From assembly GCA_003559395.1 (NCBI GenBank), contig PWLL01000016.1, positions 1-13,468 of the forward strand: a DNA stretch of 13,468 bases, read 5' to 3'. The DNA is from Candidatus Iainarchaeum sp. (GTDB lineage Archaea; Iainarchaeota; Iainarchaeia; Iainarchaeales; CSSED10-239). Shown here in pieces: positions 1-4,847 of this stretch; position 1 is the stretch's first letter, and each line of letters starts with the position of its first letter. A program made the position numbers and the translations under genes. Under the pieces are notes generated by a model, which saw only the letters and a program-made list of their open reading frames with translations, ran no database searches and was not told the DNA's origin.

Positions 1-498
1 ATCGCAGCATCAAATAATGATGCTGAAGGATATGAAAATATAACTACTCCAAAAATAGAAAATAGGCGTACTTTAACTTTAAGTAACGGTCAAGTAATTT
101 GGGATTTAGCAGGTAATGTTTGGCAATGGACTAATAATGTAATTGATCCTGATAATAAACCAACAGGATTTGATAGTGATGGAAGTGAAATTATAACTGA
201 TGGGTGGTATGATTATAGTAATGATAATAGTAATCATATACAATGGAATAATTTAGGATCACAATCTGCACTAAAATATAAAGATTTGTTTTTGTTAACA
301 AGTGGAGAATATAATGCTGAAGATAATGGTGTTGGTATGATTTATTTGAGAAAAAGTGCAACGACAGATAGAAGTTTCCTTCGGGGCGGCCGCTGGGGCA
401 GTGCCACGTACGCCGGGGTTTTGAACTTGTACCTGGACCACGCGTCGTCGTACCCGCACTCGGGCTTCGGGCTTCGTTGTTCAGTAGTTCCAGAATAA
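1..498 (+). CDS. C-terminal part of a C-type-lectin-fold / FGE-sulfatase (SUMF1-like, PF03781-type) domain protein, 5'-truncated by the window edge; candidate DGR target protein
   Basis: Frame +1 is open from nt 1; the ORF track only starts at an internal Met at 286. The translation contains DLAGNVWQWTNN (the GNVWEW-type motif of FGE-sulfatase domains) and ends with LRGGRWG...GFGLRC, the conserved C-terminal core of this fold. Stop TAA is at 496-498. Confidence 0.7.
   Translation: MAASNNDAEGYENITTPKIENRRTLTLSNGQVIWDLAGNVWQWTNNVIDPDNKPTGFDSDGSEIITDGWYDYSNDNSNHIQWNNLGSQSALKYKDLFLLTSGEYNAEDNGVGMIYLRKSATTDRSFLRGGRWGSATYAGVLNLYLDHASSYPHSGFGLRCSVVPE
376..480 (+). other. Candidate DGR variable region (VR): a GC-rich, A-depleted recoded block inside the CLec-fold CDS
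   Basis: Hand count gives 69/105 G+C and only 10 A. Of 35 codons, none ends in A and 29 end in G/C, including many NNC codons (TAC x3, CAC x2, GCC x2, GGC x4, AAC, GAC, TTC x2). Codons immediately upstream in the same ORF are A/T-ending. The block encodes exactly the RGGxW...GFxxRC tail where known DGR VRs lie. Confidence 0.45.
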
Positions 499-558
499 TA
501 TATTTAATCCCCCAACCATATATTTCACGGGTGTACGGTCTACGGTCTGCGGGGTCCC

Positions 559-594
559 AAAAAAATGGCTGGGCTTTAGGCCAGCCATTTTTTT
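559..594. terminator. Perfect 14-bp inverted repeat (AAAAAAATGGCTGG / CCAGCCATTTTTTT) with an 8-nt loop; bidirectional intrinsic-terminator-like hairpin downstream of the CLec-fold gene
   Basis: 559-572 is the exact reverse complement of 581-594. A T7 run follows the stem on the + strand, and because of the A7 run the same holds on the - strand. The hairpin lies 60 nt after the stop codon. Confidence 0.5.
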
Positions 595-808
595 AATTTT
601 TGCATCTTTCATAAAGCATGTTTAAAAAAAAGAAAGCACCCGCTATAAAAAATTTATAAAACCTTATAAAAAATAAAACCATCTTATTTTTCTAAAAACA
701 TCTAAACAACACAATTTTTTAAAAATTAACAATTATAATAGTATTAAAAATATTTTCTATTCTATATATATTAGATACTAAAATATATTTGAAAGGAAAG
801 AAGATAAA

Positions 809-1612
809 ATGAGATCTAAAAAATATTTGTGGACTTTTGTGTTGTTGTTTTTATTTGTTTTTTTGAATAGTGTTTATGCGTTTAATATAGATAGCTTTGA
901 TATAACAGTAAACGTAGAACAAGACAAATACGCAGCAATAACAGAAAGATGGTTTGTTTCTTTTGAAACAGAACAAACAAAAATAAATTTTAAAAACAGT
1001 ATTCTTGAAGCCAACATAAACCCAAACATGCTAGAAAGAATAGACTCTAAACTAAAACCAAAAATATTTATTAACGACTACTCAAACCTAAAAGTTGGAT
1101 TTGATGAAATAAATAATTTTGTAAGACTAGAATATGTTATCACAGACGTTGTGTTAATAAAATATCTAGATTATGATAATGAAATTATTTGGAGATTTAA
1201 TGATAATCTTTTTAGATATTTTGTAGAAAATAATCTTTATAATATTCCATCATCTTCGTTTCTTAGGATTTATTTACAAGAACCTTTGATGGTTGGAGAA
1301 ACTGCACCAAGAGCAGAAAAACAAAACAACACGATTTATTGGACAGGCATAAGTTCAAACGAACTTAGACTTATAGTCATAGAAAAAAAACCACCAAAAC
1401 CAACTTTTGTTATCGCAGATTTTTTTGAAGATCTTTATTTAACTAAAAATTTCATGTATTTTGTGTTTGGTTTGTTAGCGATTATTGTTTTGTTATTAAT
1501 ATTTAAACAAAAAGTTTCAAAAAATATAAAAAAATTTGTGATCAAAAACTCAAAAATAAAATCTTCTAAAAACAGAAAAGAAATTATTGATTTTGATGAG
1601 TTTAATAAATAG
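809..1612 (+). CDS. Predicted secreted, C-terminally membrane-anchored protein of unknown function
   Basis: The N-terminus MRSKKYLWTFVLLFLFVFLNSVYA looks like a signal peptide. A hydrophobic helix (FMYFVFGLLAIIVLLLIF) lies near the C-terminus and is followed by a Lys-rich tail. The start of the mature part (FNIDSFDITVNVEQD...ITERWFVSF) is faintly reminiscent of DUF2207-type membrane proteins; this is unverified. Confidence 0.65.
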   Translation: MRSKKYLWTFVLLFLFVFLNSVYAFNIDSFDITVNVEQDKYAAITERWFVSFETEQTKINFKNSILEANINPNMLERIDSKLKPKIFINDYSNLKVGFDEINNFVRLEYVITDVVLIKYLDYDNEIIWRFNDNLFRYFVENNLYNIPSSSFLRIYLQEPLMVGETAPRAEKQNNTIYWTGISSNELRLIVIEKKPPKPTFVIADFFEDLYLTKNFMYFVFGLLAIIVLLLIFKQKVSKNIKKFVIKNSKIKSSKNRKEIIDFDEFNK

Positions 1613-1621
1613 TGACTATTT

Positions 1622-3106
1622 ATGGTGTTAAAATTTACTGATAACGATATTAAAGTTTATGAATATATTAAACAAAAAAAACAAACAAGCTTTGAAGAAA
1701 TTATAAAAGCACTAAACATAAATGAAGACTCAATAAGAAGGACTTTAGAAAACCTAAAAGCCTTGTTGATAATTTCTGAAAAAAAACAACAAAAAAAACA
1801 ATATCTTCTAGATAAAAATGCAAAAAAAGCGCTTGAAAAAGGATTTATTGAAGAAATATTTTGTGATTTTTGTAAAAATAAAGAAGTATTTGTTTCTGAT
1901 ATAAAAAATCTAAATCTTGAAAATTTTGATGATCAAGAAATATCCCTAGCTTTTGGACTTGCAAAAAAACAAGATTTAATTTCTGTTGAACAAGGAAAGA
2001 TTGTTGTTGATGATAAATATAAATCAAAAATAAATACGAAAAAAGAAACTCTTAAAAAAATATCTGAAAAAAAACCAGTAGATGAAAAAACAATTGCAGA
2101 ACTTTTAAAAAGAAAAAACTTTTTAATAGAAACACAAGATACACAAAAAACCTATTTTTTTGAAAAAATAATCAACTATGAAAGTATCTCAAACAAAATA
2201 AACGAAATGACTCCAGAACTTCTAAAAACAAACGATATTCTTGAAAAAGAGTTTAAAGAATATGATGTGGAAACGCTTCCTAAACCAGCAATTCCTGGAA
2301 GAATACATCCTTTAAGACAAATCATCTATTATCTAAGAGATGTTTTTTTACAAATGGGTTTTTCAGAAATGAAAGGACCATATGTTGAGACTAGTTTTTG
2401 GAATATGGACTCTATGTTTATCTCTCAAGACCATCCTGCAAGAGATATTCAAGATACTTTTTATCTTAGTGAGAAAGGAGTGTTACCAAATGATGAAGAA
2501 CTTCTAGAAACAATAGCACAGCTTCATCTATCAGGTCATGACACAGGCTCAAAAGGCTATGGCTACGTTTGGGATGCCGAAAAAGCAAGGCAACTGGTGT
2601 TAAGAACACACACGACTGCTACCAGCTATAGGACCTTTTATAAACTTAATTTTAAAGAAGCTCAAAAGTTCTTTAGTATTGATAAAGTTTTTAGAAACGA
2701 AACCATGGACGCAACTCATTTGCCAGAGTTTTATCAAGCAGAAGGTTTTGTTATTGGAAATGATCTATCTTTAGCAGATCTTATTGGTTTTATAAAAGAA
2801 TATCTTAGTCATTTAGGAATAGATAAAATAAAAATAAAACCAAACTACAATCCATATACAGAACCAAGTATAGAAGTCTTTGCATATTCAGAAAAACAAA
2901 AAAAGTGGTTAGAAATAATAAACGCAGGAGTTTTTAGACCAGAATCTTTAAGACCCTATAATATTAAACAAAATGTTATTGCTTGGGGTTTTGGTGTAGA
3001 AAGAATAGCAATGTTGATTTATGAAAAAACAATCAAGGAAATAAACGGAGATGAATGTGATCTTAATTGGTTAAGATTATATCCAATACCAAAAAGAACT
3101 TTGTAA
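1622..3106 (+). CDS. pheS: Phenylalanine--tRNA ligase alpha subunit, archaeal/eukaryal type
   Basis: The protein is 494 aa with an N-terminal winged-helix-like extension. It has class II aaRS core motifs: GRIHPLRQ, FRNE (motif 2 region, KVFRNETMDATHLPEFYQAEG) and GFGVERIAML (motif 3). It sits directly upstream of pheT with a 13-nt gap. Confidence 0.95.
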   Translation: MVLKFTDNDIKVYEYIKQKKQTSFEEIIKALNINEDSIRRTLENLKALLIISEKKQQKKQYLLDKNAKKALEKGFIEEIFCDFCKNKEVFVSDIKNLNLENFDDQEISLAFGLAKKQDLISVEQGKIVVDDKYKSKINTKKETLKKISEKKPVDEKTIAELLKRKNFLIETQDTQKTYFFEKIINYESISNKINEMTPELLKTNDILEKEFKEYDVETLPKPAIPGRIHPLRQIIYYLRDVFLQMGFSEMKGPYVETSFWNMDSMFISQDHPARDIQDTFYLSEKGVLPNDEELLETIAQLHLSGHDTGSKGYGYVWDAEKARQLVLRTHTTATSYRTFYKLNFKEAQKFFSIDKVFRNETMDATHLPEFYQAEGFVIGNDLSLADLIGFIKEYLSHLGIDKIKIKPNYNPYTEPSIEVFAYSEKQKKWLEIINAGVFRPESLRPYNIKQNVIAWGFGVERIAMLIYEKTIKEINGDECDLNWLRLYPIPKRTL

Positions 3107-3119
3107 ATTATGATTATTT

Positions 3120-4847
3120 ATGGCAATTTTAGAGATTGATATTAATGTTATTAAAAAAGAAATATCTGAAGATCTTTCCTATGAAAAACTAGAAAAACTT
3201 TTGTTTGATTTTGGTTTAGAGATAGAAGGTTATGAAAAAGAGATCCTAAAAATAGATGTTACTACAGATAGACCAGATCTTCTATCAGAAAGAGGTTTTT
3301 TAAGAGCCTTAAAGGCATATTGTGAAAAACCAGTCAAAACTTATTCTGTAAAAAAATCAGACTATAATGTTGTTGTAGATGAAAGTGTTGCAGATGTTAG
3401 ACCCTATACAGTTTGTGCAGTTGTTAAAAATCTTTGTTTAGATGATAAGAAAATAAAAGAAATTATTTGGATACAAGAAAAACTACATCAAACGCTTGGA
3501 AGAAAAAGAAAAGAAGGGGCTATTGGGATTTATCCTTTAGATAAAATTAAGTTTCCTATTGTTTATAAAGCACAAGAAAGAATAGATATTTCTTTTGCAC
3601 CACTTGGGTTTAATGAAAAAATGAGTGTTGAAGATATTTTAAAAAAAACAACAGCCGGCAAAGAATATGCTTTTCTTTTAAAAGATAAAGAAAAATGTTC
3701 TTTGTTTATAGATAGTAACAATAACATCTTGTCTATGCCACCAATAATAAACTCACAAAAGATAGGTGAAATAACAGAAACAACAAAAGAAGTTTTTATT
3801 GAATGTTCTGGACATAATCTTAAAAGACTTAATTATTTGTTAAATATTCTAGTTTGTGCTTTTGCTGATCTTGGAGGAGAACTTTATTCTGTAAAAATAA
3901 GCTATCCAGAAAAAAAACTAACCCCTCCAAACAAAGCCACACTTGCTAGATCTATTCCTTGTCTAGCTCAAGAAAAGTTTTTTATTGACTATAATCTTGT
4001 TACTCCTGATCTTTTAGAAGAAGTTTTTGTTGTTTCTTTAGAGAGTATTAATAAGTTGTTAGGAACCAATATTAATCAAAAAGAAGCAATCGGATATCTA
4101 GAAAGAATGTTGTATAAAGTTAAGAAAAAAGGAAAAGATAAGCTGGAAGTATATGTGCCTGCATATAGAACAGATGTTTTACATGAAGTAGATGTTGCAG
4201 ACGATATCGCAAGAGCTTATGGTTTTTCAAATATCCAAGAAAGATTTCCACAAATATCTACTATTGGTTTATTAAAAGAAATAACACATACTCAAGATAA
4301 CCTTATATCGACTATGACCTCCTTAGGCTTTCAAGAAGTTATGTTGTTAACCACTTCTTCAAAAAAAGAAATGTATGATGCGTTTGGAGTATCTACAAAA
4401 GATGCAGTAGAAATAAACTATTCAAAAGACAAAACGATTGACGTTGTTGTTTCTTGGTTAACTCCAAAGATGTTAAAGTTTTTAACTAACAACCAACATA
4501 TGTTTTTTCCACAAAAAATCTTTGCTTGTGATTTTGTTGTAAAAAAAGATAAAGATAAAGACGTGCTTTCAAGAACAAAACTTGCATTAGCAGGAATGAT
4601 AGCAAACCCTAAAGTTAGTTTTTCTGAAATTTCTTCTGTTCTTTTGGGGTTGTGTAATAGTCTTGGTTGGAGATTAAGTTTAGAAGAAAAAGAATTTCCG
4701 TTCTATATAAAAAGCAGATCTGCAAAGATAATGATTAATGAAAAAGAAGTTGGGCATGTTGGAGAGTTAGCACCAAAAGTCTTAAAGTCTTTTGAATATT
4801 ATATGCCTGTTTGTTGTTTTGAAATAGATGTGGAAGAAATAAAATAA
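3120..4847 (+). CDS. pheT: Phenylalanine--tRNA ligase beta subunit, archaeal type
   Basis: The protein is 575 aa. The N-terminal DVTTDRPDLLSERGFLRALKAY is typical of archaeal PheT (B3/4 region), and the central YVPAYRTDVLHEVDVADDIARAYGF is the B5-domain signature. It is adjacent to pheS. Confidence 0.93.
   Translation: MAILEIDINVIKKEISEDLSYEKLEKLLFDFGLEIEGYEKEILKIDVTTDRPDLLSERGFLRALKAYCEKPVKTYSVKKSDYNVVVDESVADVRPYTVCAVVKNLCLDDKKIKEIIWIQEKLHQTLGRKRKEGAIGIYPLDKIKFPIVYKAQERIDISFAPLGFNEKMSVEDILKKTTAGKEYAFLLKDKEKCSLFIDSNNNILSMPPIINSQKIGEITETTKEVFIECSGHNLKRLNYLLNILVCAFADLGGELYSVKISYPEKKLTPPNKATLARSIPCLAQEKFFIDYNLVTPDLLEEVFVVSLESINKLLGTNINQKEAIGYLERMLYKVKKKGKDKLEVYVPAYRTDVLHEVDVADDIARAYGFSNIQERFPQISTIGLLKEITHTQDNLISTMTSLGFQEVMLLTTSSKKEMYDAFGVSTKDAVEINYSKDKTIDVVVSWLTPKMLKFLTNNQHMFFPQKIFACDFVVKKDKDKDVLSRTKLALAGMIANPKVSFSEISSVLLGLCNSLGWRLSLEEKEFPFYIKSRSAKIMINEKEVGHVGELAPKVLKSFEYYMPVCCFEIDVEEIK

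Follow-up and report, generated by a model that had tools for sequence, protein, structure and literature searches.

DGR targets in archaea and bacteria

Work by Paul and colleagues, which appeared in Nature Microbiology in 2017, is said to have described the variable proteins of diversity-generating retroelements (DGRs) with an FGE-type C-type-lectin (CLec) fold in CPR and DPANN organisms. The DGR variable proteins of these organisms were surveyed by Wu et al. 2018 (PMC5758913), and the literature documents GC-rich constant flanks repeated in both the template repeat (TR) and the variable region (VR), targets that are non-adjacent to or remote from their cassette, and the occurrence of DGRs in CPR and DPANN (PMC5758913, PMC8144416). 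In the Bordetella phage that encodes Mtd, the cassette is contiguous with the target gene (PMC5758913). Metagenome surveys anchored on the reverse transcriptase (RT) state that remote targets are missed by them, being undetectable in fragmented metagenomes (Roux et al. 2021, PMC8144416).

The locus described here lies at the start of a 13,468-nt stretch of DNA from Candidatus Iainarchaeum sp. (contig PWLL01000016.1), the whole of which is referred to as the window. Positions 376 to 491 of the window are likely to be the VR of a DGR target gene in a DPANN-type archaeon, written from a template that lies out of view. The evidence comes from the nucleotide composition of this segment, from bona fide DGR targets among its homologues, which carry a VR at the matching position (L003 and L011, and the VR of L004 when set against the TR of L003), and from elements conserved at and beyond its 3' end.

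Nucleotide composition of the 3' block

A single open reading frame occupies positions 1 to 498 (+ strand; 165 codons and a stop codon). It is open at the window start, with its N-terminus beyond the window, and on the evidence of the reading frame, its homologues, a family profile and a structural model it was assigned as the 3' part of a target (variable protein) gene with a predicted FGE-type CLec fold. The frame runs without interruption through a GC-rich, adenine-poor block of 35 codons at positions 376 to 480 (+ strand, FLRGGRWGSATYAGVLNLYLDHASSYPHSGFGLRC), which was delimited by composition, codon statistics and its match to the VR/TR of the family. The 105 nt of the block consist of 36 G, 33 C, 26 T and 10 A (65.7% GC), compared with 27.6% GC for the whole window and 30.1% for positions 1 to 375 of the same reading frame. 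Across the whole window, the best 105 nt outside the block reach 49.5% GC, at about position 2532. The second-highest GC stretch, of about 47-50%, spans positions 2516 to 2640 and lies inside the PheRS alpha gene.

The change is sharpest at third codon positions, which are C16 G13 T6 A0 in the block and T65 A46 G12 C2 in the 125 codons upstream of it; GC3 is 83% in the block versus 17% in the genome. An earlier note on this DNA, made by eye, had given 69/105 GC, 10 adenines, 29/35 codons ending in G or C and no codon ending in A, and these counts were exact on recount. The A/T bias that it had described for the upstream codons is confirmed by the third positions given above, and so is the raised GC that it had seen past the stop codon, which amounts to 43% over positions 499 to 600.

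When expected codon use was taken from the 14 other open reading frames together with codons 1 to 125, the amino acids of the block predicted 6.2 G/C-ending codons against the 29 of 35 that are present (Poisson-binomial P = 5.8e-19; Fisher 3e-17). The arginine codons CGG and CGC are used in the block, and none of the 108 arginine codons elsewhere in the window is of either kind. Amino-acid content as the source of the GC excess was ruled out by this synonymous-codon test. Because the same 35 residues predict so few G/C-ending codons, and because CGG and CGC are otherwise missing from the window, the anomaly resides in the nucleotide sequence, being mutational or templated, and not in the encoded residues. 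The ten adenines of the block are distributed over codon positions 1, 2 and 3 as 3, 7 and 0.

The probable target protein and its predicted fold

Searches with the 165-residue fragment identified 32 homologues, the best of them at 54% identity, and many of these are annotated with PF03781 (FGE-sulfatase). Two homologues are named, one from a Ca. ainarchaeum MAG and the other from an unclassified archaeon. For residues 1-165 themselves, the expected relationship to PF03781 was only partly borne out: a match to the Pfam FGE-sulfatase family is present, but it is weak (E 0.0033) and stays under the curated cutoff. Comparison of the family profile with the PDB gave the human FGE paralogue pFGE (1y4j, E 5e-4) and a weak match to the C-terminus of the Thermus aquaticus variable protein TaqVP (5vf4, E 0.16).

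The AlphaFold model of the window fragment alone was poor and unusable (pLDDT 53.7). That of a full-length homologue, P0007, reached a pLDDT of 63 and a pTM of 0.68, with core blocks at 80-90, and its best structural match in the PDB was TaqVP (5vf4, E 5.5e-6), followed by formylglycine-generating enzymes and then by Mtd of the Bordetella phage. Sequence identity in these matches is 13-17%, and the P0007 model, being of moderate confidence, gives low TM-scores (0.3-0.44). Ten scaffold residues (F126, R128, G129, G130, W132, G139, L143, G157, R159 and C160) are invariant in the family and intact in the window, with variable columns between them. The assignment to the CLec/FGE fold, which had been put forward from the sequence of this gene, is thus supported at the level of the family by the PF03781 homology, the 1y4j match and the model of P0007, and would extend to the window protein as a member of that family.

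DGR cassettes at homologous loci

In a Ca. ainarchaeum MAG (GCA_028690785.1; locus L003), a homologue of the window protein, P0002, is encoded at the end of a 61.8-kb contig. The gene order there is target P0002, a hypothetical gene, bAvd, TR and an RVT_1 reverse transcriptase. The VR occupies positions 533 to 650, the last 118 nt of the target, and is repeated as the TR at positions 1739 to 1856, between Avd and RT. Sixteen of the 17 mismatches in the VR/TR core fall on TR adenines, and L003 is therefore a canonical target-Avd-TR-RT cassette. GC content is 53% in the TR and 66% in the VR, so that A-to-N replacement itself raises GC. Directly downstream of the RT gene of this locus, two perfect 127-nt direct repeats were also observed (3168-3294 and 3395-3521), 227 nt apart. 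A second cassette, at locus L011, comprises target (homologue P0018), bAvd and RT, and all of its VR/TR mismatches (10/10) are on TR adenines.

At locus L004 (JGI 3300015214), which comes from a different sample than L003, the VR of homologue P0005 (516-645) differs from the TR of L003 (1739-1856) at 17 positions, every one of them a TR adenine (17/17). No TR, Avd or RT was identified in the 10 kb downstream of this target, and L004 is a precedent within the family for a VR with no cassette in view. The place of the cassette is taken at L004 by two uncharacterised genes of 353-354 aa on the opposite strand. Likewise, no cassette was present at L005, where the flanks of the target in view measure about 8 kb and 3 kb, nor within view at L006, L007/L008, L009 and L010. 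A VR without its cassette in view is therefore the common situation for this family on metagenomic contigs.

Comparison of nine family loci shows that the block running from FLRGG to (F/L)RC is exactly 35 codons long in each of them (with RV in place of RC in L011), and in L003 and L011 this block is the VR/TR repeat. All nine show the composition flip: the block has 56-66% GC and a GC3 of 60-86%, and the gene body has a GC3 of 10-21% in eight of them and 42% in L011. The GC3 of the window block is as high as that of the loci with a demonstrated TR. The cassettes of L003 and L011, their mismatches on TR adenines and the shared 35-codon block together support what the earlier note had proposed, namely that the window gene carries the VR of a CLec/FGE DGR target whose TR and RT are out of view.

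The boundaries of the window block also correspond to those of the repeat in L003. The flip begins at the F codon (376), and the VR/TR homology of L003 begins about 4 nt before its own F codon; it ends just before a conserved GTAGTT, which is where the VR/TR homology of L003 stops. Nine codons of the window block contain adenine, and seven of them lie on the 10 AAY positions of the L003 TR (Fisher P 5e-4), a TR that is not cognate to this VR. At those same positions, 9 of the 10 window codons are NNY (P 0.04). The NNG codons of the block had been raised as a caveat against a DGR origin; most of them are at adenine-free scaffold codons of the L003 TR (such as CGG, TGG, GGG, TTG and CTG). Positions 376 to 480 would accordingly comprise the diversified part of the VR together with adenine-free scaffold codons.

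The L003 TR was considered as the template of the window VR and was ruled out, since 34 of the 52 differences between them are at non-adenine positions. Constant codons differ as well (for example TTC CTT in the window versus TTT TTG in the L003 TR), and a different TR must therefore serve the window VR.

The 3' boundary of the probable variable region and the downstream noncoding element

The VR 3' end (positions 481 to 491, + strand, TCAGTAGTTCC) was delimited by a five-locus alignment and by the end of the L003 VR/TR homology at GTAGTT; it is conserved at the DNA level and is IMH-like. In the alignment GTAGTT is invariant, as is the CC that follows it (GTAGTTCC, 484-491). In L003 the VR ends in GCAGTAGTTCCATAG and the TR in GCAGTAGTTTATAG. 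The motif CAGTAGTT is kept at the VR end of L007 (915-921) and of L008, and in L007 the stop codon falls inside it (CAG TAG). The pattern suggests that selection acts on this motif as DNA, in the manner of an IMH, and not on the residues that it encodes.

Past the stop codon, a noncoding element begins with an AT-rich/C-rich leader (501-527, + strand, TATTTAATCCCCCAACCATATATTTCA) that is conserved with L007. Over window positions 501 to 532 (TATTTAATCCCCCAACCATATATTTCACGGGT) and L007 positions 988 to 1021, about 29 of 33 bases are identical, compared with only 51% identity between the two target proteins. Conservation of this kind would imply either a noncoding constraint or a recently shared 3' module. 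The leader has no match among viral contigs, and nothing was detected with Rfam at gathering thresholds in the window, L003, L004 or L006.

The leader is followed by an array of four CGG units with a period of 7-8 nt (528-552, + strand, CGGgtgtaCGGtctaCGGtctgCGG), identified by a regular expression (CGG-N3-6 three times, then CGG) and by TRF, which reports a period of 7 and 3.3 copies. The expression matches once per locus in the window, L003, L004, L006, L007 and L008, always on the + (gene) strand and 30-96 nt past the target stop codon; the 6 matches observed compare with 0.08 expected from local shuffling. The arrays are at 717-742 in L003, 706-731 in L004, 516-541 in L006, 1017-1044 in L007, 1020-1047 in L008 and about 633-658 in L019, and no CGG array is present near the TR in L003. 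At the matching place, TRF found other short-period tandem units in L005 (8826-8862, period 7/15), L009 (660-679, period 7) and L011 (1008-1056, period 22). Non-AT tandem arrays are uncommon, with 12 in 66 kb, and four of nine loci have one at most 130 nt from the stop codon (binomial P 3.5e-5).

In the DGR literature searched, no description of such 3' arrays was found, and only this periodic array is possibly new here. One tentative idea, more doubtful than probable, is that the tandem array of 7-8 nt period past the VR is a cis element of DGR targets in archaea that has not been described before. The array could possibly serve as a platform for a multimeric factor, for example the pentameric Avd with RT, and so tag the gene as a recipient of retrohoming; a regulatory site in the 3' UTR is just as possible, and so is a conserved remnant that takes no part in homing. 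If arrays of this kind do tag recipients, one cassette could serve non-adjacent targets such as the window gene.

Further downstream, folding and a terminator scan identified a hairpin at positions 559 to 594 (A7-TGGCTGG..CCAGCCA-T7; dG -16.2 kcal/mol, z -5.4) that looks like a terminator on either strand and is where the target transcript probably ends. A GC-rich inverted repeat just past the IMH has been described for 34% of DGRs (Wu et al. 2018, PMC5758913). Hairpins that abut the VR like this classical inverted repeat are present in L003, L004, L007 and L009 and absent in L006. In the window no inverted repeat abuts the VR end, and the nearest strong hairpin is that at 559-594, 70 nt downstream.

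The raised GC beyond the stop codon, together with the sharp composition boundaries, could also be read as a patch from a GC-richer donor that replaced positions 376 to about 590 by lateral transfer or recombination, with no retrohoming involved, and positions 1 to about 729 of the window are indeed not syntenic with its nearest relatives (see below). However, the GC-rich stretch past the stop codon does not look like part of a foreign patch, because the AT-rich positions 481 to 508 separate it from the block and because it appears to consist of the hairpin and of a noncoding element that is conserved in the family loci. The identical 35 codons flip in nine homologous loci that come from different samples and were assembled independently, the block is in frame and encodes the domain's own conserved C-terminal strands, and its adenines are missing only at third positions and located at TR-AAY positions. 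A laterally acquired segment, which had been offered as an alternative, is largely refuted by the same flip at nine loci and by the post-stop element common to the family, and such a replacement is highly improbable.

Genomic context and the search for a template

The other genes of the window encode PheRS alpha and beta, aIF5A, a NYN-domain protein, a ParA/MinD-type ATPase, an LSm protein, enolase and Alba. The PheRS alpha has its named relatives, at 54-56% identity, in Ca. ainarchaeum and unclassified archaeal MAGs. The gene set is archaeal in character and fits a DPANN-type archaeon.

A repeat search showed no TR-like copy of the block within the window, and inspection of the 14 open reading frames in the 13 kb downstream showed no RT or Avd, in agreement with the initial reading that neither TR nor RT is in view. 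A degenerate 54-nt VR/TR pattern (26 specified bases) and a 21-mer at the VR 3' end (GGGCTTCGTTGTTCAGTAGTT) each gave 0 matches in collections of genomes, metagenomes and viral contigs, and neither of them recovered the window's own VR. Both patterns match the window VR by construction; the zero matches therefore mean that the window region is not in these collections, and they say nothing of the absence of a TR.

An exact search with the neighbouring 267-aa protein yielded just two contigs, both short: L001 (JGI 3300000563, 99.3% identical), which starts at window position 625, and L002 (Logan SRR490129, 99.95%), which starts at 729. They are independent assemblies from the same population, and neither contains the target gene. 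Strain heterogeneity at the module may account for their starting points, and so may low coverage. The start of L002 coincides with the synteny breakpoint described below. An assembly chimera or artefact, in which AT-rich and GC-rich fragments were joined at about 376 and at 480-590, would agree with two independent assemblies that end just downstream of the target module. Nevertheless, the reading frame and the domain homology are unbroken across position 376 and nine further contigs, drawn from ENA, JGI and NCBI, have the same architecture, which makes a chimera extremely improbable.

Between the hairpin and the synteny breakpoint lies an AT-rich spacer (595-729), delimited by blastn against L012-L018, the nearest relatives of the window by PheRS alpha (74-75% identity). 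Window positions 1 to 1700 align with these loci from 730-733 rightwards only, and no homologue of the target was identified in L012-L018 by tblastn. Upstream of the breakpoint (about 9109 in L012 and about 7759 in L015), they carry genes of the metallo-beta-lactamase fold in the target's place. Because L012-L018 are syntenic only from about position 730 and have no target homologue, positions 1 to about 729 (the target and its 3' element) are, to judge from synteny, a lineage-specific accessory module that arose by insertion or replacement.

These observations bear on whether the VR is a relic, that is, a block formerly written by a DGR whose cassette was later lost or became inactive, leaving an ordinary lectin-fold gene. 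The 13 kb without TR, Avd or RT agree with such a history, as do the missing hairpin that abuts the VR in L003, L004, L007 and L009, the accessory status of the target module relative to its closest relatives, and L005, which is likewise without a cassette in about 8 kb and 3 kb of flanking sequence. However, there is no sign of amelioration in the block, which lacks third-position adenines and has a GC3 of 83%, compared with 17% for the genome; this is at or above the values of loci where a TR has been demonstrated. Furthermore, neither the reading frame nor any scaffold residue is disrupted, conservation extends to the GTAGTT end and the 3' array, and non-adjacent targets are documented for DGRs (PMC5758913). 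A relic VR is therefore an unlikely explanation for this locus.

Proposed origin of the variable region

The reading of positions 376 to 491 as the VR of a DGR target implies a mechanism that can be drawn by analogy with characterised DGRs. A TR located elsewhere would be transcribed and copied into cDNA by the DGR reverse transcriptase together with Avd, with misincorporation opposite template adenines, and the cDNA would then replace the VR as far as the conserved GTAGTT end. The scaffold codons of such a TR would be free of adenine and its adenines concentrated in AAY codons, which in each round would be turned into other bases. The VR would accordingly carry the codon choice of the TR, G/C-ending and adenine-poor, and not that of its 27.6% GC host, giving the sharp flip at position 376. 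To our knowledge there is no experimental study of retrohoming in archaea.

Since the 13 kb downstream do not contain it, the TR-Avd-RT cassette would be expected before the window start or at another place in the genome, and the window gene would be a non-adjacent target. This VR would have been written by retrohoming, its DGR is presumably still present, and we infer that the DGR may still act on it.

Comparison with known systems

The closest described counterparts of the window gene are the FGE-type DGR targets of CPR and DPANN organisms, of which L003 is an example. They share with it a C-terminal 35-codon FLRGG..RC block in an FGE-sulfatase-like domain, and targets of the L003 type also share the GC-rich, adenine-poor VR in an AT-rich genome, the GTAGTT end and a CGG array in the 3' flank. 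Unlike L003, the window has no adjacent bAvd, TR or RT and no hairpin abutting the VR, and its constant codons are different. DGR targets in DPANN and CPR are already documented, and the window adds one non-adjacent target to these, not a new principle.

TaqVP of Thermus aquaticus (5vf4; PMC6328139), which ranks first among the structural matches of the family model, resembles the window family, as do Mtd (1yu0) and Treponema TvpA, in having a CLec fold of the FGE subclass with the VR at the extreme C-terminus. These proteins differ from it in coming from bacteria and a bacteriophage, and their sequence identity is only 13-17%. Nanoarchaeota AvpA (PMC5006420; PMC4372165) resembles the window protein in being the variable protein of an archaeal DGR and in having a CLec fold. 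Its fold, however, is divergent and non-FGE, its VR is internal and followed by 46 residues, and its hairpin lies inside the coding region; AvpA is absent among the best 50 structural matches listed for the P0007 model.

Non-adjacent and remote DGR targets (PMC5758913) are similar to the window gene in having a VR with no neighbouring cassette, as is L004 within the family. For the published remote targets, VR and TR are both known from one genome, whereas the window VR is known without its TR. The composition flip alone (GC3 of 83% versus 17%, with no third-position adenine) places the VR to the codon in an AT-rich genome, and it could serve to find remote targets that RT-anchored surveys miss (PMC8144416). 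In the conserved 3' array, this locus and its relatives also offer a concrete candidate for target recognition in archaea.
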